In this document: positions 1,876 to 26,194 of the stretch, in pieces | Numbering within the stretch: the first letter of the stretch is position 1 | Layout of the letters: the number at the start of each line of letters is the position of its first letter | Assembly: GCA_964655705.1 (NCBI GenBank) | Contig: CAZZPP010000001.1 | Coordinates: forward strand, 90,534 to 154,533 | DNA from: an uncultured Candidatus Saccharibacteria bacterium | GTDB lineage: Bacteria; Patescibacteriota; Dojkabacteria; SC72 | DNA: 64,000 bases | Direction: 5' to 3' | Program-made: the position numbers and the translations under genes | Notes under the pieces: model-generated | What the model saw: the letters and a program-made list of their open reading frames with translations, nothing else | What the model was told of the DNA's origin: nothing | Databases searched by the model: none

Positions 1876-2526
1876 ATGATACATTTTGATATTGTAACAA
1901 TCTTTCCTGAAGTAATATCTGCATACACAAATAGCAGTATAGTAAAACGTGCACAAGAGAAAGGATTAATAAAAATAGATATACACAATCTAAGAGATTG
2001 GGCTTTAGATAAGCATAAGAGTGTAGATGATACCCCATATGGAGGAGGACCAGGAATGGTAATGAAAGTAGAACCGATATATAACTGTTTAAAAGACTTA
2101 AAAAAAGAAAACAGTATAGTAATATTAACATCCCCCAAAGGAGAGAAATTAGTACAAAGTAAATTACATGAACTATCACAAAATAAAGATTCACATTACA
2201 TAGTACTCTGTGGACACTATGAAGGATTTGATCAAAGAGTACATGATAATTTAGTAGATTGGGAATTCTCCATAGGAGAGTATGTCCTATCTGGAGGAGA
2301 GCTACCAGCACTAATCCTCATAGATGGAATAACAAGGTTAATACCAGGTGTATTAGGAAATGAGCAGTCTCTAATCTCTGAAACCTTTAATACAGATACT
2401 CCAGACTATCCAACATATACTAAACCAGAGATATTTCTTAACTGGAAGGTACCAGAGACACTGTTAAGTGGTAATCACAAAGATATTAAGGAGTGGAGAG
2501 AGAAAATGTCAAAAATGAGTAAATAG
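1876..2526 (+). CDS. trmD: tRNA (guanine37-N1)-methyltransferase TrmD
   Basis: DIVTIFPE and DDTPYGGGPGMVM SPOUT/TrmD motifs. The ORF-track start at 1732 runs through the tRNA; the real start is the ATG at 1876 (MIHFDIV), 8 nt after the tRNA. Confidence 0.9.
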   Translation: MIHFDIVTIFPEVISAYTNSSIVKRAQEKGLIKIDIHNLRDWALDKHKSVDDTPYGGGPGMVMKVEPIYNCLKDLKKENSIVILTSPKGEKLVQSKLHELSQNKDSHYIVLCGHYEGFDQRVHDNLVDWEFSIGEYVLSGGELPALILIDGITRLIPGVLGNEQSLISETFNTDTPDYPTYTKPEIFLNWKVPETLLSGNHKDIKEWREKMSKMSK

Positions 2527-2601
2527 TTCCACCTTGTGTGATAATCTGAAATAGAATAGAATAATAAAGATACCTGTAAGATAACTTTTTTACGTTTCCC
2601 A

Positions 2602-3078
2602 ATGTTCCCAATAAGAAAAGAAAAATTCAAGATAACAAAGGAGAAAGAGAAAGAACTCATTAATGAATTAGAAGAACTAAACCAAGAGTTAGTAGAAATT
2701 GCCAATAGAATGGAAGAATCTAGAAGAGATGACTCTGATGAAGACAGTTCAATACTTGGAACCATATCTGTTGAGAAAGAAGGAATCCAAAAACAAATTA
2801 AGGAAATAAGCCAGATTCTAGATAACTATGAAATAATTGAAGAAGGGAATGTATGTGAACCAGATAAAATTAAACTTGGGTCCTCAATTAAAGTTAAGGA
2901 TGGAGATAAGATACTACAGTTTAAATTAGTATCATCTCTTGAAGCTGATCCATTAAAAAACTATATATCTGACAAATCTCCTCTAGGAAAGAAATTACTA
3001 AAAGCTAAAGTGGGAGATACTGTGACAGTAATAGTAAGAACAAATATCATTAGATACAAGATATTAGAAGTTTGTTAG
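2602..3078 (+). CDS. GreA/GreB-family paralog with a divergent N-terminus (Gfh1-like?)
   Basis: C-terminal ISDKSPLGKKLLKAKVGDTV matches the Gre FKBP-like domain. The N-terminal coiled coil lacks the GDL-EN acidic-tip motif and instead carries ESRRDDSDEDSS. Confidence 0.7.
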   Translation: MFPIRKEKFKITKEKEKELINELEELNQELVEIANRMEESRRDDSDEDSSILGTISVEKEGIQKQIKEISQILDNYEIIEEGNVCEPDKIKLGSSIKVKDGDKILQFKLVSSLEADPLKNYISDKSPLGKKLLKAKVGDTVTVIVRTNIIRYKILEVC

Positions 3079-4367
3079 TTAATAACTGAGTTTAAGTCCT
3101 CAATCTTAACTCTTTTCTGTTTCATTGTATCCCTATCTCTTACTGTAACTGTATCATTCTCTAAAGATTCATAATCAATTGTAATACAGTGTGGAGTACC
3201 AATCTCATCCTGATACCTATATCTCTTACCAATATTACCTCTGTCATCCCATACTACCTTGTTACCCTCTGAAAGCAAGTTAAATATATCTCTAGCCTTT
3301 TTAACAATATCCTCCTTGTTATTTACCAATGGGAATATGGCTACCTTGTAAGCAGCAATATCTCTGTGAACCTTAAGTACCGTCCTAATATTCCCATTAC
3401 CCAAATCTTCCTCCTCATATGCATCTAAGAGTAAAAAGAACAGTGTCCTATCTATACCACCAGAAGTCTCAACGATCCATGGAATATATTTCTCATTTGT
3501 TTTAGGATCTGTATATGAGAGATCCTTGTTAGAGAATTTACTATGTTGTGTTAAATCATAATCAGCTCTCCAGTGTATACCCTCATTCTCTGCCCAACCC
3601 CAATCCGTCTTGTATTCAATATCAAATGCTTTCTTAGCATAGAAGACTAGTTTCTCTTTAGGATGTTCGTAGAATCTCAAATTCTCTTCCTTTCTGTAAA
3701 GAGTCTTGAAAAAATTCATCCGCTCCTCTTTCCAGAACTCAAACCATCTCTCCATTTCACTAGGATGAACAAAAAACTGTAAATCCCACTGTTCAAACTC
3801 TCTAGTTCTAAATGTTAATTTGTTAGGAGTAACCTCATTTCTAAAAGCTTTACCAATCTGAGCAATACCAAAAGGAATTTGCTGTCTAGTAGAATCAACA
3901 ACATTTTTAAAATCTAAATATATATTCTGACAAGCCTCACCTCTAAGGTATGCATCCATTTTCTCTCCCTCCAATACTCCTACTTCTGTCTTAAACAACA
4001 TATTGTATTTTCGACTCTCAGTAAACTCAATCCCACCACATTTAGGGCACTTCTCATCAATATCTTCTGGCCTAAATCTTTGATGACACTTCTTACACTC
4101 TACTACCTCATCAGCAAAGCCTGTAAGATGCCCTGATGCCTCCCAGACCTTTGGATGGGTAATAATGGTCCCATCAATACCTACAACATTCTCTCTTCTG
4201 TCTACAATATTCCTCCACCAATATCTCTTTAAATTGTTTTTCATCTCTACACCAACAGGCCCGTAGTCATAGAAGCCTCCCATACCACCATATATTTCAG
4301 AATTAGGAAATATTATTCCTCTTCTTTTTGCTAAAGCTGTAATCTTTTGTAAAGTGTCCTCTGCCAT
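3075..4367 (-). CDS. glyQS: glycyl-tRNA synthetase (class II, homodimeric alpha2 type)
   Basis: GGMGGFYDYGP, the Zn-binding CKKCHQRF...CPKCGG segment, and a class II core with an anticodon-binding C-terminus. Its end overlaps the convergent gre paralog by 4 nt. Confidence 0.9.
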   Translation of the reverse strand: MAEDTLQKITALAKRRGIIFPNSEIYGGMGGFYDYGPVGVEMKNNLKRYWWRNIVDRRENVVGIDGTIITHPKVWEASGHLTGFADEVVECKKCHQRFRPEDIDEKCPKCGGIEFTESRKYNMLFKTEVGVLEGEKMDAYLRGEACQNIYLDFKNVVDSTRQQIPFGIAQIGKAFRNEVTPNKLTFRTREFEQWDLQFFVHPSEMERWFEFWKEERMNFFKTLYRKEENLRFYEHPKEKLVFYAKKAFDIEYKTDWGWAENEGIHWRADYDLTQHSKFSNKDLSYTDPKTNEKYIPWIVETSGGIDRTLFFLLLDAYEEEDLGNGNIRTVLKVHRDIAAYKVAIFPLVNNKEDIVKKARDIFNLLSEGNKVVWDDRGNIGKRYRYQDEIGTPHCITIDYESLENDTVTVRDRDTMKQKRVKIEDLNSVIN

Positions 4368-16425: not shown

Positions 16426-16722
16426 TTACTTCTTTTTATCAACAAACCTAATCTCCAAATCTTTTCCTAGTGCATTGGCTATTTTAATCAATTTCTCAAT
16501 CGAAACATTCCTCTTTCCAGTTTCTATTTTACTGATTGTACTACGAGGTATACCAGATTTAAGGGATAGTGAGTCTTGAGTAATATGATAACTCTCTCTA
16601 AATTCTTTTATCTGTCTGAGAGCAATTCTTTTTTGCGCCTTAGCATCTAACTCACGAAGTTCTTTTTGGGTAAACATCTCTTTCCTGGCTTCTTCCCAGG
16701 GTATTAATACTGATTTGTTCAT
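16426..16722 (-). CDS. HTH-XRE family transcriptional regulator / HigA-like antitoxin
   Basis: Cro/C1-type HTH (LKSGIPRSTISKIETGKRNVSIEKLIKIANALG), 98 aa, immediately downstream of a RelE/HigB-like gene with a 6-nt spacer. Confidence 0.7.
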   Translation of the reverse strand: MNKSVLIPWEEARKEMFTQKELRELDAKAQKRIALRQIKEFRESYHITQDSLSLKSGIPRSTISKIETGKRNVSIEKLIKIANALGKDLEIRFVDKKK

Positions 16723-16727
16723 TTTAT

Positions 16728-17060
16728 TTATACTAATTTTATTTTTCTTCTAACTGCCTTCTGTATCTCTCTTAGTGGTGTCTTTTGAGTTTTCTTTTTA
16801 AAAGCGCAGAGAATTACAATATCATCATTTTTGTAAACATAGATACATCTATACATTCCATTTTCTCTTACTCTCAATTCGTAAAGATCATATCCTGAAA
16901 GTTTTCTACTTTCTGGATATTTTAATGTTCCAAAATAACTTAGTTCCTTAATTAAAACGTCAAAAGCTTTTATTGTAGTGGATGGAAAGGTTAAAAGCTC
17001 CTCTTGTGCATTATATTCTATGTATACTTTCTTTCGGTTTGATTGTGCCATATATGCCAC
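16728..17060 (-). CDS. RelE/ParE-superfamily toxin, HigB/Gp49-like
   Basis: ~107–110 aa. C-terminal IVILCAFKKKTQKTPLREIQKAVRRK matches the conserved tail of Gp49/HigB-type toxins. Toxin-first gene order as in higBA. The annotated start is GTG; an ATG lies 3 codons downstream. Confidence 0.65.
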   Translation of the reverse strand: MAYMAQSNRKKVYIEYNAQEELLTFPSTTIKAFDVLIKELSYFGTLKYPESRKLSGYDLYELRVRENGMYRCIYVYKNDDIVILCAFKKKTQKTPLREIQKAVRRKIKLV

Positions 17061-17136: not shown

Positions 17137-17210
17137 CGGGGTGTAGTTCAGATGGCTAGAACGCTTGCATGGGGTGCAAGAGGTCGCTCGTTCAAGTCGA
17201 GTCACCCCGA
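17137..17210 (+). tRNA. tRNA-Pro (anticodon GGG), CCA not encoded
   Basis: Manual cloverleaf: acceptor CGGGGTG/CACCCCG with the C1-G72 pair typical of bacterial tRNA-Pro and discriminator A; D-arm GTTC-AGATGGCTA-GAAC; anticodon stem CTTGC/GCAAG with loop ATGGGGT (G37); T-arm GCTCG-TTCAAGT-CGAGT. Confidence 0.85.
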
Positions 17211-17941: not shown

Positions 17942-18448
17942 ATGATAAATAAGATTGAAAATAGACAGGATTTAGAAGAACTCTTTAGATGGTTAAACGA
18001 ACCACTTTACAAATATATATATGTAAGATGTGGATATAACAGGGAGTTAGCTCAAGATATTACACAAGATGTATTTCTAAAGGTATGGGACAAGAGAGAG
18101 ACCTTTAATCCTAAGAAGTCTACACTTAAAAACTGGGTATACATTATTGCTAGAAACCATATTGTAGACCTTTACAGAAAGAAGAAGATTAACTTAAAGA
18201 CTTTAGATGAAGATATACAAGGAAGTGTTAAAGATCATAGTTTAGATACTGAGAATGAACTAATGATGTGCCAGGTGTTAAAGAATTTGAATAGGCTTAA
18301 GGAAGGGGACAAGGAGGTAATAGTACTTAGATATATTGAGGATTTAGAGATAGCTGAGGTAGCACAGATAATTGGAAAGAGTGAGAATACAACTAAAGTT
18401 ATGATACATAGAGCAGTAAAGAGATTAAAATTTTTAGTAAATAAATAA
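17942..18448 (+). CDS. RNA polymerase sigma-70 factor, ECF subfamily
   Basis: Region 2 (ITQDVFLKVWDKRETF...YIIARNHIVDLYRKK) and region 4 HTH (LRYIEDLEIAEVAQIIGKSENTTKVMIHRAVKRLK). Confidence 0.85.
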   Translation: MINKIENRQDLEELFRWLNEPLYKYIYVRCGYNRELAQDITQDVFLKVWDKRETFNPKKSTLKNWVYIIARNHIVDLYRKKKINLKTLDEDIQGSVKDHSLDTENELMMCQVLKNLNRLKEGDKEVIVLRYIEDLEIAEVAQIIGKSENTTKVMIHRAVKRLKFLVNK

Positions 18449-19320
18449 TGGATGAGAGTGAGATTTTAAAAAAATTAAGTGAATTTAAATCTAAGCCAAG
18501 TAAAAGATGGCAGGAAGAAACCTTGGAGAAGTTAAATACCACTGTAACTAATTCCTTAGATATTCGTAATAGTAATATGAACTTAAATAATTTAAATAAT
18601 TCTTTAAACATGAATAAGAAGTTCAGACCAATTGTTGCTTTAGCAACTTTAATTTTAACATTTGCTGTTTTAGGAGGAGTAGCATATGCTTCTGATTCTG
18701 CAATGCCAGGAGAGCCACTCTTTGGAGTAGATAAGGCGATGGAACAGATAAGAAGGACATTGACCTTAAATCCACTAGACAGGGCAGAGTACGAGATGAA
18801 AGTTATGGATGAGAGGATGGAAGAGTTAAAACAGATGAGCTATGAGCAGAATGCTATGGGTATCTCTAATGGTATCGAGGAGGTTGAGGCTCAACAGTTA
18901 AGATTACAGAATATGTTTGCGAATATGTCTCAATTAAGGTCAGAGGGTGATACACAGGAGGCTGAAAGACAGTTACAGGTAATGAACAAAATTGCTGAGA
19001 AACTTGCTGCACAAAGTGGTGTATTAGATCAAACTAGAGAGAAATTAATGGAGAACAAGGATGAGAGTAACTCTTCTGAGTTAGACCAACTTCAGTATCA
19101 GTATATGGAACAGGTACAAAACCAGATAGGGGAATTTGAGAATGAGACTGGGTTAAAGGTAAATACCAATACTCAAACTATTGAGCAGAATCAAGGAGAG
19201 GATTCACAGATTCAAAATGATATTCAGAATCAAGTAAATACTGGTGATGGAGATAGTAACTCGCAGGGAGTTCAGGGTGTAAGTAATAGTAATGGTTCTA
19301 ATGGTAATGGGGGTAGGTAA
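18448..19320 (+). CDS. putative anti-sigma factor (single-pass, DUF5667-like ectodomain, Gln/Asn-rich tail)
   Basis: Start overlaps the sigma stop (TAATG). ~60-aa cytoplasmic N-terminus, one TM helix (IVALATLILTFAVLGGVAYA), then an extracytoplasmic coiled-coil region. Confidence 0.55.
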   Translation: MDESEILKKLSEFKSKPSKRWQEETLEKLNTTVTNSLDIRNSNMNLNNLNNSLNMNKKFRPIVALATLILTFAVLGGVAYASDSAMPGEPLFGVDKAMEQIRRTLTLNPLDRAEYEMKVMDERMEELKQMSYEQNAMGISNGIEEVEAQQLRLQNMFANMSQLRSEGDTQEAERQLQVMNKIAEKLAAQSGVLDQTREKLMENKDESNSSELDQLQYQYMEQVQNQIGEFENETGLKVNTNTQTIEQNQGEDSQIQNDIQNQVNTGDGDSNSQGVQGVSNSNGSNGNGGR

Positions 19321-19343
19321 GAATATTGCAGAATGGTTGTAAA

Positions 19344-19368
19344 AGGGACTCCTATGGGTCCCTTTTTG
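19344..19368 (+). terminator. rho-independent terminator (AGGGAC-TCCTATGG-GTCCCT + TTTTTG)
   Basis: 6-bp GC-containing stem, 8-nt loop and a T-run, 24 nt after the anti-sigma stop. Confidence 0.6.
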
Positions 19369-19445: not shown

Positions 19446-20774
19446 ATGGGCAAAAATAACATATTCTCATTTGTATTAGGTATGGTGATTACAGTAGTAT
19501 TAATGTTACTGCTCTACCCGTTTAAAAGGGATTCCTTAACAGAAGAAACAGGAGATGTTCAAGGTCTCTATGATAGACTACTAAGTTTGGAGTATGTGAA
19601 AGATGTCTCAAATGATGTTGAATTAATATGGAATGAAGTAGTCTCTTCATCAGAGTGGGTTCCCAGTGGTACTGTTACTACAAGTGATGTATTAGAGGGT
19701 AAAACTTTTTACAACAATTCTAGAGATATTCAAACAGGTACATATGTTCCAAAGGAGTTTGAATTTTTAGGTGATGCTTTACAAAATGATGTATTAGAGG
19801 GGAAACTGTTTTACTCTGAGGATGGTGAACTTTTAGCAGGTACTCTTAAACTACCTACTATACCCACATTAACATACAGCGGGAATGCAAGTACTAGTGA
19901 TGTACTAGCAGGTAAGACATTTTACTCTAATTCAGGGACATTAAAAACAGGAACATATACTCCCCCAGTAGTATCATATTTAGGTGATGCACTAGTAACA
20001 GATGTAATGAGTGGTAAGAAGTTCTATTCTAACTCAGGAACACTACTAACAGGGACATGGTCATTTCTAGGAGATGCAGGAGTAGATGAGGTATTAAGTG
20101 GTAAGAAGTTTTACTCTGACTCAGGTACTCTATTAACAGGTACATATACACCTCCAACACCAATAGATTTTACAAATATGCAATACAGTACATATGATGA
20201 TTATGCAGGTATTGACTATCTAGGATATGGAGGAACATTAACAGAGGATTACAAGGGAGAAGAATCAGAGTGGACAAAGATATCAGACAATATATGGAAG
20301 GATGAAAGAGCTGGGATATATTGGAGTAGTGATCAAACTAATACTATGTTAGCACAAGTTCCTTCAATACCTAATACAAACATATTTACCGCAATGTCTC
20401 TCGGCACTTGTGATTACTTTAACTCAGTACCCAGAAGTTCATATGATGGTACAGATGCTGATTGTGGTAATGCAATAAACTGGTGTGCGACATTAGAATT
20501 AGATGGTAGAAGTAATTGGTACTTACCTTCACAAAAAGAATTGATGTTAGCATACATAGATGGAATGTATAACCAAGCAGGAGAGACATTAGCAGATGCA
20601 GCATCATTTACAGTAGGAGATGGTAGTTCAATACACTATGGGTTTTATTGGTCTAGCTCGGAGGTCTCCGGCAATTCAGCGGACGCATGGGTCGTGAACC
20701 TCGGCGGTGGGTATCCCAACGTCAACTCTAAGACGACTACGGGCCGCGGTGTTCGTTGTGTGTCCCGGGACTAG
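19446..20774 (+). CDS. membrane-anchored surface protein with five ~30–40-aa tandem repeats and a DUF1566-like C-terminal domain
   Basis: N-terminal TM helix; repeats with consensus DVLxGKxFYSNSGTLLTGTYTPP; C-terminus ...YWSSS...AWVVNLGGGY...GRGVRCVSRD resembles the DUF1566 (Lcl C-terminal) ending. Confidence 0.6.
   Translation: MGKNNIFSFVLGMVITVVLMLLLYPFKRDSLTEETGDVQGLYDRLLSLEYVKDVSNDVELIWNEVVSSSEWVPSGTVTTSDVLEGKTFYNNSRDIQTGTYVPKEFEFLGDALQNDVLEGKLFYSEDGELLAGTLKLPTIPTLTYSGNASTSDVLAGKTFYSNSGTLKTGTYTPPVVSYLGDALVTDVMSGKKFYSNSGTLLTGTWSFLGDAGVDEVLSGKKFYSDSGTLLTGTYTPPTPIDFTNMQYSTYDDYAGIDYLGYGGTLTEDYKGEESEWTKISDNIWKDERAGIYWSSDQTNTMLAQVPSIPNTNIFTAMSLGTCDYFNSVPRSSYDGTDADCGNAINWCATLELDGRSNWYLPSQKELMLAYIDGMYNQAGETLADAASFTVGDGSSIHYGFYWSSSEVSGNSADAWVVNLGGGYPNVNSKTTTGRGVRCVSRD
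20650..20772 (+). other. GC-rich, NNC-codon-rich 3' segment of the gene above: candidate DGR variable region (VR)
   Basis: Abrupt switch from AT-rich codons (AGA, GGA, AAA) to CGC, CGG, GGC, GCG, GTC, CTC, CCC. Many codons end in C (gtc tcc ggc gac gtc aac ctc ggc ccc aac gtc aac ggc cgc tcc gac). Composition returns to AT-rich right after the stop. Confidence 0.4.
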
Positions 20775-20810
20775 TGTTTAGAATTTGGTAATTTAGTAAT
20801 TTTTTAATTT

Positions 20811-20833
20811 ACCCATCCACAAAGTGGATGGGT
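20811..20833 (+). other. GC-rich hairpin ACCCATCCA-CAAAG-TGGATGGGT, 37 nt downstream of the stop
   Basis: Perfect 9-bp stem read from the sequence with no following T-run, so not a canonical terminator. The position matches the hairpin/cruciform found 3' of DGR VR/IMH elements. Confidence 0.5.
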
Positions 20834-21030
20834 TGCATTAGAAGTATATTGAATTATAGGGGAATAATATTAATATCTCTGTCCCACCTTATAGTCTTTC
20901 TCTCTGTATTACTTTTTTACTTTGTATTCACAATATAGTATGTATTACTAAGTATATATATTTTAGTCATAATCATTATTTTCTGTACATATAACATACA
21001 TATGTCTTAGCATATACATGCATACTTAAA

Positions 21031-23863: not shown

Positions 23864-26194
23864 ATGAAGAGGAGGAAAAGTAAAAACAGAATTAAATATA
23901 CAATATTGTTTCTTTTAGGTTGCACACTTTTCTTTCTCACCTCATATCTCTTTTTGAAAAATCTCCAATACCAGAAGATCTTAACTCAAAAGCCATGGGA
24001 TATTCAGGTTGTTAATATCACTACATCTGATATATGGGTATACTGGAAGAGTTCCAGTGATTCTATTCAGAATATTGTTTACAGAGAGGATACTGATGAT
24101 TCTACTGAATATATTGAGGTTAAAAACCTCGAGTATCATACAGACTATATAAATGAGAGTAGGGTATTTTCTACACATATTCAGGATCTAAAACCAGATA
24201 CTAAATACCTATTCAAAATATTGTCTAAGGAGTATGAATGGGATCAAGAGATATCATTTAAGACAAAGGAGGTTACACAAGAGGTCCCATATCCTGAGAT
24301 ACTTACAGGAAAGGCTAATGACAAGAGTTTAATACTGGTAGAGATGCCAGATGAGAAGTTAATGGTGGATACACAGTACCATGGTACCTATGCATTTGAT
24401 TCAAAGGGTAAAGAGTTTACTGTTTCAGAGTATTCTAGATATATTACTGGGGAGGAGTTGGGAGAGAGATTGTCTAAGTTAATATCTCCTAAGGTATATG
24501 CAGCTAGTGGTGCTAATTGTAAAACCAATATTACCATTAGTAGTGTTACATATCCTCCCACTAAAGCAAAAACAATTGACATTCTTAATCGGTGGGTTGC
24601 TGGTTGTCCTATGGGGGGATATCCTGAAACCTGCTATGAGGATGTATATTGTAGATCTTTGAAGTATGGTATTAATCCTGCTTTTGCTATGGCCATATGG
24701 TCTCATGAATCAGGTGGAAGTAACTATGCATATATTAGTGGGGTTGAGGATTTCGGTATTCATGGGCATCCTGATGTTGGGGTTGCTAACTTTGAGAAAC
24801 AGATTGAATATTTCTTACAATATATCGCAGTACCTTCATATATTAGTAGCTGTCAATGGAGTTTAGAGTTTGAACAAGAGTACAGCCCTACTCTTCCTAA
24901 GGAGATGATTATGTGGGCGGCTAGATATTACAAAGGGCAGTGTAGTGATCCTGTAAATCTGAGTCATGGGTATGAATATATTTCGGAGATAAATAGGGTG
25001 TATGGTTGGTATACAAACTCGACATTGACTTGGCCTTTTACAGTATCTAGAAATAGCTCTGTTTGTGATTACTCCTCTTCATTTATCAATACCGCTTACA
25101 ATACTTGTACTTCAAAAGGGGAGCCTACTGATGATCCACCCGAAGATCCTCCAACAGAACCAACTGTAGATGACGGCCAAAAGAAATGGCTTCCCATTAC
25201 TGGTATAGATAATGAGGGAAAGAGAATCTCGCCAGAGGTTGACAGGGAGTGTGAATATTCTGCTGGTTGTATATGTATATGGAATTACAATATTAAGCCA
25301 GGTGAGAGTACCAAGGAGGCTAGTAAAGGATATGTATGTACAGTATCAGGAGAGGTCGTAAGTGCTCCTACACCTAAGTGTGGTACAAGAGCAACTACAT
25401 ATTCAGATTCAACTTCTACTTGGCCATCTGGTTCTACTCTTTGTGAGATTGGTACTGCCCAACCTTCTACCGTTGATTTCCCTTCAGTTGGAAACGATTC
25501 CTCTTGGGAGTGTGTTAGTGGAAGTAAGTCTCAAGATTGTAAGGCTAGGGTATCTGCATTACCTCTTGTATGTTGTTTTAGTAATCAAACAGTATCGTGG
25601 ATTGATTCTAGGGAGTGTAGTGGAGAGGTATTACAAGGTATTGAGAAATCTAAATGTGTTGTGAAGGATGGTGTAATTAATATTGTTAAAGGTACAAACT
25701 TCATCCAAGCTCTTGATGTAGTTAACTACCAGGATGTTCCCATACGTACTGCTAAGGAATTAATCGAATACTCAGCAATGAAAATTTTTGTAGTAGGAGA
25801 ATTTCTGAACAATGAGTGGATTAAGGTTGTTAAATATTCACAAGGTAGTATACATGGACAAGACTTTAATCTAGAGAGTGGGAAGGTTTACTTGGTCGTA
25901 TCTCTAGAGGATATGAAGATTTCTTTTGAGAGTATTTCGAGAATATATGTTTTGCAGGATCTCACTAAATTGGTAGGATGGAATTTAATACCTTCTTCAT
26001 ATTTCGAAGATATATCTGATGAGAGTAGGGATATTCTCTTAGAGAAAGATTTGGAATATATCTCTCAGATTGGGATATGGGATGGGGAGTTAAGTTCGTT
26101 TAACTATACTGCCAGAGATGAGGCAGGAGTAATCTATGGTGACTCATTAGATATTGATGAGCAACAGGGTGTTTTTGTTAAAATAGCAAACTAG
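23864..26194 (+). CDS. large exported Cys-rich multidomain protein (FN3-like N-terminus, possible lysozyme-like segment)
   Basis: 776 aa. N-terminal TM/signal; WDIQVVNITTSDIWVYWKS FN3-like region; AMAIWSHESGGSNYAYISG loosely resembles glucosaminidase/lysozyme-like ESG motifs; more than 25 cysteines in the C-terminal half. Confidence 0.45.
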   Translation: MKRRKSKNRIKYTILFLLGCTLFFLTSYLFLKNLQYQKILTQKPWDIQVVNITTSDIWVYWKSSSDSIQNIVYREDTDDSTEYIEVKNLEYHTDYINESRVFSTHIQDLKPDTKYLFKILSKEYEWDQEISFKTKEVTQEVPYPEILTGKANDKSLILVEMPDEKLMVDTQYHGTYAFDSKGKEFTVSEYSRYITGEELGERLSKLISPKVYAASGANCKTNITISSVTYPPTKAKTIDILNRWVAGCPMGGYPETCYEDVYCRSLKYGINPAFAMAIWSHESGGSNYAYISGVEDFGIHGHPDVGVANFEKQIEYFLQYIAVPSYISSCQWSLEFEQEYSPTLPKEMIMWAARYYKGQCSDPVNLSHGYEYISEINRVYGWYTNSTLTWPFTVSRNSSVCDYSSSFINTAYNTCTSKGEPTDDPPEDPPTEPTVDDGQKKWLPITGIDNEGKRISPEVDRECEYSAGCICIWNYNIKPGESTKEASKGYVCTVSGEVVSAPTPKCGTRATTYSDSTSTWPSGSTLCEIGTAQPSTVDFPSVGNDSSWECVSGSKSQDCKARVSALPLVCCFSNQTVSWIDSRECSGEVLQGIEKSKCVVKDGVINIVKGTNFIQALDVVNYQDVPIRTAKELIEYSAMKIFVVGEFLNNEWIKVVKYSQGSIHGQDFNLESGKVYLVVSLEDMKISFESISRIYVLQDLTKLVGWNLIPSSYFEDISDESRDILLEKDLEYISQIGIWDGELSSFNYTARDEAGVIYGDSLDIDEQQGVFVKIAN

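Follow-up and report, generated by a model that had tools for sequence, protein, structure and literature searches.

Can a gene be a target of a diversity-generating retroelement (DGR) when the retroelement itself is not beside it? The question is raised by positions 19446-20774 of a 64-kb stretch of DNA ("the window" in what follows) from a Dojkabacteria-like genome of the Patescibacteria, or candidate phyla radiation (CPR). An original prediction, made from the sequence alone, had proposed that the DUF1566-like C-terminus encoded here is a DGR target. Among prokaryotes, targeted protein hypervariation is known only from DGRs. CPR bacteria carry them especially often and are thought to adjust their attachment to host cells by means of them; Paul and colleagues reportedly described DGRs of Patescibacteria/CPR in Nat Microbiol in 2017. 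We find that the locus is an orphan DGR target module and not a complete DGR. It is classified as a target module because the cognate template repeat (TR) and the reverse transcriptase (RT) are both missing within the window. The gene and its variable segment are:

19446..20774, + strand: DGR target gene, an open reading frame (ORF) of 442 amino acids
20648..20768, + strand: variable repeat (VR), 121 nt, codons 402-441, delimited by comparison with the TR of a related locus (L002)

The variable repeat and its family template

What identifies the segment as a VR is the pattern of its differences from a TR. Related loci are designated L001, L002 and so on, and the closest comparison is with the TR of L002, which comes from a related Dojkabacteria genome and is not the window's own. 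Over 121 nt the two repeats agree at 92 positions and differ at 29. Every difference falls on one of the 48 adenines of the TR and none on the 73 other positions (hypergeometric P 1.6e-15), just the adenine-specific pattern that the original prediction had expected. By type, 19 of the substitutions are A>G, 5 are A>T and 5 are A>C. VR and TR are homologous from 20648 (TTGGTCTAGC...) to 20768 (...TCCCGG), and 19 VR codons are templated by AAC, AAT or ACN in the family TR. The other TRs of the family differ from the window VR at 27-29 adenines and at 2-10 further positions. A degenerate VR/TR pattern had a single match among species-representative genomes, on an 808-kb contig (L002/L021) where VR and TR lie 410 nt apart. 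Judging from these comparisons, the window VR was almost certainly written by a DGR, and its cognate TR for 20648..20768 would be expected to read approximately TTGGTCTAGCTCGGAGGTCTCCAACAATTCAACAAACGCATGGAACGTAAACCTAAACAATGGAAATACCAACAACAACAATAAGACAAATACAAACAACGGAGTTCGTTGTGTATCCCGG.

The VR also stands out by composition, as had been pointed out at the start. GC content peaks at 0.63 (20650-20749) and falls to at most 0.35 after the stop codon. Within the 64 kb, whose overall GC content is 32%, only 20622-20790 reaches 55% GC in any 100-nt interval, which makes it the clearest compositional anomaly of the window. The switch in codon usage is equally abrupt: in codons 403-442, 42% end in C, compared to 9% in the rest of the gene, and GC is 62% compared to 36%. 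Both this jump and the NNC/NNT codons arise because of A-to-G/C changes relative to the TR, whose codons are AAC, AAT and ACN. The excess comes from 24 such substitutions, which separate a TR of 41% GC from a VR of 61%.

We are interested in whether the same codons vary among related proteins. A protein search returned 280 homologues, and those that are named belong to Candidatus Dojkabacteria / Patescibacteria. Entropy was calculated from an alignment of 86 of the 280, and the hypervariability described here is seen at the level of this family. The protein is well conserved apart from 19 positions within the last 35 residues. At 16 of them (residues 409, 410, 412, 413, 416, 418, 420, 421, 423, 425-428, 431, 433 and 434) the entropy is 3.0-3.3 bits, and at the three ACN-templated positions (424, 430 and 432) it is approximately 1.4-1.5 bits. 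Invariant residues are interleaved with these sites, and the flanks are at approximately 0 bits. Where two proteins agree at 372 of 372 scaffold residues, their identity at the 19 VR sites is still only about 20%, no higher than between proteins that are 65% identical overall. The residues found at the variable sites are the 15 that AAY codons can yield when their adenines change (Y N D G S F R T V A L I H P C), while K and E are near zero. The hypervariability that had been anticipated at specific codons is thus confined, among the 86 homologues, to the AAY-templated ones.

One sequence in the family, P0037 (L001 989-2203), carries Asn at every variable site. We do not accept it as a genuine homologue; it is an assembly chimera, and in the L001 contig the target gene leads directly into the TR, with the bAvd and RVT_1 genes following. 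The family RT has the motifs IGNLTSQ and YVDD.

Could the segment have arisen without a DGR, either donated by a high-GC DUF1566 homologue (through gene conversion or horizontal transfer) or shaped by ordinary diversifying selection? Recombination does shape this gene: 19446-20645 is a mosaic whose identity to various relatives, in bins of 60 nt, jumps between 20% and 98% (best matches: L021, 93-95% at 19806-19985; L004, 91-98% at 20226-20285 and 20466-20585). The variable segment itself tells against such an origin. Its nearest parent is not a high-GC gene but the A-rich TR, and every difference from that parent lies at an adenine. All homologues found sit on AT-rich Dojkabacteria-like contigs and show the same pattern. 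Point mutation and selection cannot yield only AAY-accessible residues together with saturated variation between identical scaffolds. Gene conversion from a high-GC homologue, which the original prediction had kept as an alternative, therefore falls away, and we consider any origin without a DGR to be extremely improbable.

The target protein and the elements 3' of its repeat

The features of the protein outside the VR are:

20298..20762, + strand: Lcl_C/DUF1566 domain, modelled as a C-type-lectin fold, residues 285-439
19761..20145, + strand: stalk of four tandem repeats of 29-37 amino acids (GDA..DVL.GK.FYSNSGTLLTGTY), found by repeat search

The 442 amino acid product begins with a hydrophobic N-terminal membrane anchor and ends with the Lcl_C/DUF1566 domain, which itself ends in the VR; the stalk lies between anchor and domain. 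The DUF1566-like C-terminus that had been proposed is confirmed by Pfam PF07603 (Lcl_C, formerly DUF1566), whose match scores 50.6 bits and so exceeds the cut-off of 34.9 (E 2.9e-13; profile positions 4-116 of 117). The protein also has a weak match to Fib_succ_major (E 0.0022), below the cut-off. The suggested C-type-lectin fold was tested by modelling. A full-length structure prediction was unusable (predicted local distance difference test, pLDDT, 41); a model of residues 236-442 alone, built on a more diverse alignment, reached a pLDDT of 81 and a predicted template modelling score (pTM) of 0.80. The fold account of this model names the lectin-like domains of invasin and intimin and domains of the formylglycine-generating-enzyme type. 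A sequence search of the PDB gave nothing relevant. The C-terminal domain thus models as a C-type-lectin fold, in agreement with the prediction, and the VR is placed where DGR targets carry it, at the C-terminus of such a domain. A published survey assigns VRs of the DUF1566 type to a C-type-lectin class (CLec2 / category d), of which Legionella LdtA is the example (PMC5758913).

The closest homologue, P0002, is encoded on an 8,207-nt NCBI contig. It is 482 amino acids long and has one stalk repeat more, and an insertion at approximately 20346-20405 is common only to the window gene and P0002. It is tempting to speculate that P0002 could be a second target copy from the window's assembly. The VR of P0002 carries changes that are not of the adenine type (SSSQAS, KF, an E).

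Three further elements end or follow the VR, the first resembling the initiation of mutagenic homing (IMH) sequence of known DGRs:

20748..20768, + strand: IMH-like 3' end of the VR, GGTGTTCGTTGTGTGTCCCGG, 21 nt, from direct comparison of all VR and TR copies of the family
20769..20810, + strand: conserved spacer from VR to hairpin, including the last codon and the stop, with the motif AGAATTTGGTAATTTAGTAATTTTTTAATTT, from alignment to relatives
20811..20833, + strand: inverted repeat ACCCATCCA-CAAAG-TGGATGGGT, hairpin- or cruciform-forming, stem of 9-10 bp

The 21-nt IMH-like block is common to every VR and TR of the family. Immediately after it, at 20769, the two part, with GACTAG in the VR and TACTTA in the TR. 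In some relatives the block is unlike the adjacent TR at non-adenine positions, which is expected if this region is not overwritten by homing. Conservation continues beyond the VR: the 88 nt from 20748 to 20835 contain one mismatch compared to L008/L009, the stretch 20780-20835 is 98% identical to L004, and the motif AGAATTTGGTAATTTAGTAATTTTTTAATTT is still recognisable in the distant L023.

The hairpin starts 36 nt past the stop codon and 42 nt past the end of the VR. It can be extended to a 10-bp stem with a 3-nt AAA loop (-16.6 kcal/mol). The original prediction had described a perfect 9-bp, GC-rich hairpin with no T-run. The hairpin and the missing T-run hold; its "GC-rich" character is only relative to the AT-rich genome, with 5 of 9 pairs being G-C. 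The window contains about eight distinct perfect hairpins of at least 9 bp. Taken alone this one is unremarkable, and it is its conservation in relatives that makes it notable. A hairpin stands at the same place 3' of the VR in every related locus and never 3' of the TR, with the following forms:

Window and most relatives: ACCCATCCA - CAAAG - TGGATGGGT
L002, L006, L020: ACCCCTCCA - CAAAG - TGGAGGGGT
L011, L018: ACCCCTCCAA - gctctga - TTGGAGGGGT
L016: ATCCATCCAAT - caatg - ATTGGATGGAT
L023 (distant): ATCATCCGATC - ttta - GATCGGATGAT

Substitutions among the five stem variants are compensatory and leave every pair intact, which bears out the proposal of an accessory hairpin 3' of the VR. In phage BPP-1, efficient retrohoming depends on a hairpin/cruciform 3' of the VR, and what counts there is the structure of the stem and not its sequence (Guo et al. 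2011, PMC3240598). By analogy, the hairpin is presumed to be a target-recognition element for retrohoming. We also considered whether it might be an intrinsic (rho-independent) terminator and rejected this; there is no T-run, and TGCATTAG follows the stem. A terminator scan found only the terminator of the upstream gene (19341-19366).

A cassette elsewhere or a cassette lost

Is this target still being rewritten? In the mechanism that we propose, an A-rich TR encoding S-N-N-S-T/N-N-A-W-N-V-N-L-N-N-G-N-T-N-N-N-N-K-T-N-T-N-N-G-V-R-C-V-S-R would be transcribed. The DGR RT together with Avd would copy the transcript, misincorporating opposite template adenines, and the cDNA would replace the VR, a step guided by the VR's invariant IMH-like end of 21 nt and by the hairpin beyond it. 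The outcome would be a re-randomised ligand-binding face on the C-type-lectin-fold domain, shown on a membrane-anchored stalk. In the reading that we narrowly favor, the intact target module (VR with its IMH-like end, 42-nt spacer and hairpin) would still be served in trans by a TR-avd-RT cassette located elsewhere in the genome. We give close to an even chance to such a cassette still acting on the window VR.

How are such cassettes arranged in the family? In the related loci (L001-L005, L021, L023-L025) the target gene on the plus strand is followed by the hairpin, a spacer and the TR on the same strand, and these are convergent with avd and the RT gene, both on the minus strand. At its 3' end the TR directly adjoins the stop codon of avd, which makes the 3' flank of the TR RNA antisense to avd. 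The non-coding spacer of approximately 190 nt directly 5' of the TR (L002-L025; e.g., L004 4450-4650) is almost invariant across the family. Two long stem-loop domains are predicted in it, it matches no Rfam family, and its copies are too similar to show covariation. This spacer may belong to the DGR RNA as its 5' portion, or it may supply the promoter and leader of that RNA.

Units of the family occur in more than one form. L008 has two target genes in tandem, and the contig Ga0116142_10000305 holds two complete DGR loci (L011 and L016) 23 kb apart. In L007, L008, L010 and L013 the RT is genuinely truncated: only its last 85 amino acids follow avd, and then comes an unrelated 165 amino acid ORF. 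The VRs beside these remnants, where TR and avd are kept, are still fully diverged from the TR. From the remnants, the tandem targets and the paired loci we conclude that the family duplicates and erodes its units. Shorter public RT gene calls in relatives, of 151 and 253 amino acids, were considered as decayed RTs and rejected. Their frames (L002 1631-2698, L004 5141-6208, L003 12092-13198) are open for at least 356 codons with no ATG near the 5' end, so the short calls are start-codon artefacts.

Multi-unit genomes, and units that keep TR and avd with an 85 amino acid RT, make action in trans plausible, and some family units appear to share an RT. Non-adjacent and remote targets have been documented for other DGRs (PMC5758913). 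The target module of the window shows no decay, with 0 of 73 non-adenine differences in the VR, 1 of 88 in the IMH-like block and its flank with the hairpin, and an intact ORF; this counts for action in trans. The conservation of the 3' flank was not accepted as proof of current activity, given that identities of 90-98% to one relative or another occur elsewhere in the gene as well. That a CPR target should be kept diversifiable at a distance, with its cassette more than 43 kb away on one side or 19 kb on the other, and still be rewritten in trans, is possible, and we hold it as a tentative view.

Several observations weigh against a cassette acting from afar, and they begin where the homology to the related loci ends:

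20835..20836, no strand: homology breakpoint, from blastn of the L004 cassette against the window and alignment of the 3' flank

Homology to all related loci stops at 20835, 2 nt past the hairpin. Past this point the relatives continue with a conserved spacer of approximately 230 nt, then the TR, and then avd and RT on the opposite strand; the VR and TR cores lie 403-417 nt apart in 14 independent loci of the family. Of the 15 related loci whose sequence reaches far enough downstream, 14 have the cassette next to the target. The 64-kb window holds no second copy of the VR segment and no TR (short-query blastn, repeat search and comparison of a relative's TR-containing cassette with the window). 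Neither an RT nor an Avd was found in it by a scan for the Y[x]DD motif or by tblastn, for which an RT and an Avd of the family served as queries (best E 3.5 and 0.31, respectively). The original prediction had already reported a window free of TR and RT. Nowhere do the 64 kb show a remnant of spacer, TR, avd or RT, and downstream of the target gene there is no synteny with the related loci.

The upstream side points the same way. A tRNA-Pro(GGG) gene at 17137-17210 (+) was found by ARAGORN and is absent from the Rfam gathering-threshold scan. Its 75 nt are 100% identical to L015 1845-1919, while the adjoining genes are only approximately 70% identical. Synteny with L015 comprises orf330, orf193 and this tRNA gene. 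The DGR target of L015, like that of L002/L021, is found 2-3 kb past tRNA-Pro on the downstream side, behind recombinase/integrase and IS1595 genes, which suggests a tRNA-Pro-linked island. In the window the interval from tRNA to target is occupied instead by genes for an extracytoplasmic function (ECF) sigma factor and a DUF5667 protein. Because the tRNA-Pro(GGG) linkage is common to L015 and L002/L021, where the cassette is adjacent, gene order suggests that the window holds the ancestral locus minus its cassette rather than a dispersed extra copy.

Has the locus then become a frozen relic? In that case a DGR wrote the VR, the TR-avd-RT cassette was recently deleted or replaced, no compatible cassette is left, and the gene, with one fixed receptor variant, now evolves like any other surface-lectin gene. 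The abrupt break where nearly all relatives have a cassette speaks for it, and the conserved upstream linkage argues for loss in situ. Cassettes do erode in this family, as seen from the 85 amino acid RT remnants and from an insertion sequence (IS) between hairpin and TR in L006. CPR DGRs usually have a single adjacent target (PMC5758913), and the 179-kb contig was assembled straight through the VR. Against a relic, the module is undecayed, so that a loss, if any, would be very recent, and the family does contain multi-unit genomes and units that apparently share an RT. We regard a relic as quite possible, at somewhat below an even chance. The IS in L006 (approximately 2205-3324) encodes an rve-type transposase, has terminal inverted repeats, and is inserted approximately 22 nt past the hairpin, parting VR from TR.

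A third possibility is that the cassette really follows the hairpin and that the contig was mis-joined just past it to unrelated sequence. DGR loci are repeat-rich and variable in populations, and in this family they clearly disturb assemblies: the L001 contig fuses a target to a TR, and many contigs of relatives stop inside or close to the target gene. Moreover, the break in the window falls directly after a palindromic element. However, a de Bruijn mis-join needs a shared k-mer, which implies that some genome in the sample would still carry the hairpin end together with the window's downstream sequence. There is no inverted duplication or other anomaly around 20836, and complete DGR loci of relatives assemble correctly in contigs of 216 kb and 808 kb. 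An assembly artefact is thus improbable.

An RT known only from NCBI, P0329, was considered as the RT of the window's assembly and was rejected, as it comes from GCA_001577815.1.

Both the element type and the taxon are already well documented, and the orphan status is the only unusual aspect of the locus. It offers a clean example, with very strong sequence evidence, of a target module without a cassette in a family where the two otherwise adjoin. If a cassette elsewhere serves this target, then remote targeting exists in CPR and the locus delimits a sufficient cis-acting module. The minimal module would in that case be the 121-nt VR, the 21-nt IMH-like end, the 42-nt spacer and the hairpin, ending 2 nt past the stem, and the target repertoires of DGRs in tiny CPR genomes would be under-counted. 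If no cassette serves it, the locus would be a snapshot of a hypervariable receptor becoming fixed on loss of its retroelement. Either outcome would be incremental for the field.

Known systems and the genomic surroundings

A close parallel is LdtA of Legionella pneumophila. As in the window, its VR lies at the C-terminus of a DUF1566/Lcl_C-type C-type-lectin domain in a surface-anchored protein, the variable codons are AAY-templated, and a GC-containing inverted repeat follows the VR. In contrast to LdtA, the window gene belongs to a CPR host of 32% GC, and its product has an N-terminal transmembrane anchor and a repeat stalk instead of a lipoprotein signal. The Legionella DGR also has an adjacent avd-TR-RT, which the window does not; where relatives of the window do have avd and RT, these genes run convergently to the TR and are not co-oriented.

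How does the family compare to other DGRs of CPR bacteria (the CPR set of PMC5758913; DGR clade 2 of Roux et al. 2021, PMC8144416)? The window shares their taxon and their cellular context. IMG/VR viral contigs scanned for the family's conserved VR/TR end gave no match, and a phage origin is thus unsupported. The window's relatives also share with CPR DGRs an Avd-type gene opposite the TR strand and a single target adjoining the cassette. The CPR architecture B3, TR-(avd)-RT, in which the TR is followed by a reverse avd and a forward RT, was described by Wu et al. (2018, PMC5758913) for 90% of the DGRs of CPR. The window's related loci are arranged differently, as TR-(avd)-(RT) with avd and RT both opposite the TR, and the window has no cassette. 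An orphan target without a cassette would be undetectable by metagenome surveys of this kind (PMC8144416).

In Mtd of Bordetella phage BPP-1, the prototype DGR, the VR likewise lies at the C-terminus of a C-type-lectin fold (PMC3240598). BPP-1 and the window family both have an invariant 3' block in VR and TR followed by divergence (IMH vs. IMH*), and in both the hairpin is 3' of the VR and not of the TR. The loop is CAAAG (5 nt) or AAA (3 nt) in the window, compared to a 4-nt GRNA in the BPP-1-type consensus, and the distance from VR end to hairpin is 42 nt compared to 4-34 nt in the phage consensus (PMC3240598). Unlike in BPP-1, the stem in the window has only 5 of 9 G-C pairs, and the locus is on a host chromosome and not in a phage. 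The TvpA DGR of Treponema denticola and other remote-target DGRs resemble the window in having a target gene without a local cassette, for which any diversification would need to occur in trans (PMC5758913). In Treponema the cassette and its remote targets are seen in one complete genome, whereas here the target module is seen alone, within 64 kb. Remote targets have been reported only outside CPR, and CPR DGRs with single adjacent targets (PMC5758913).

Several neighbors of the target gene deserve mention. The ECF-type sigma-70 gene (17942-18448, +) overlaps the DUF5667 membrane-protein gene (18448-19320, +) by one base. The DUF5667 protein looks like an anti-sigma factor; the T-run terminator at 19341-19366 follows its gene and stands directly upstream of the target. 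In other family loci groES-groEL or IS1595 is found upstream of the target. Between orf193 and tRNA-Pro, a Gp49/HigB-like toxin gene (16728-17060, -; Pfam PF05973) lies beside a 98 amino acid ORF (16426-16722, -) that is HTH (helix-turn-helix)-antitoxin-like by appearance; this pair (16426-17060) is absent from the syntenic L015. Finally, 3 kb downstream of the target, 23864-26194 (+) encodes a Cys-rich protein of 776 amino acids, either secreted or anchored, whose N-terminal domain is of the fn3 / purple-acid-phosphatase type.

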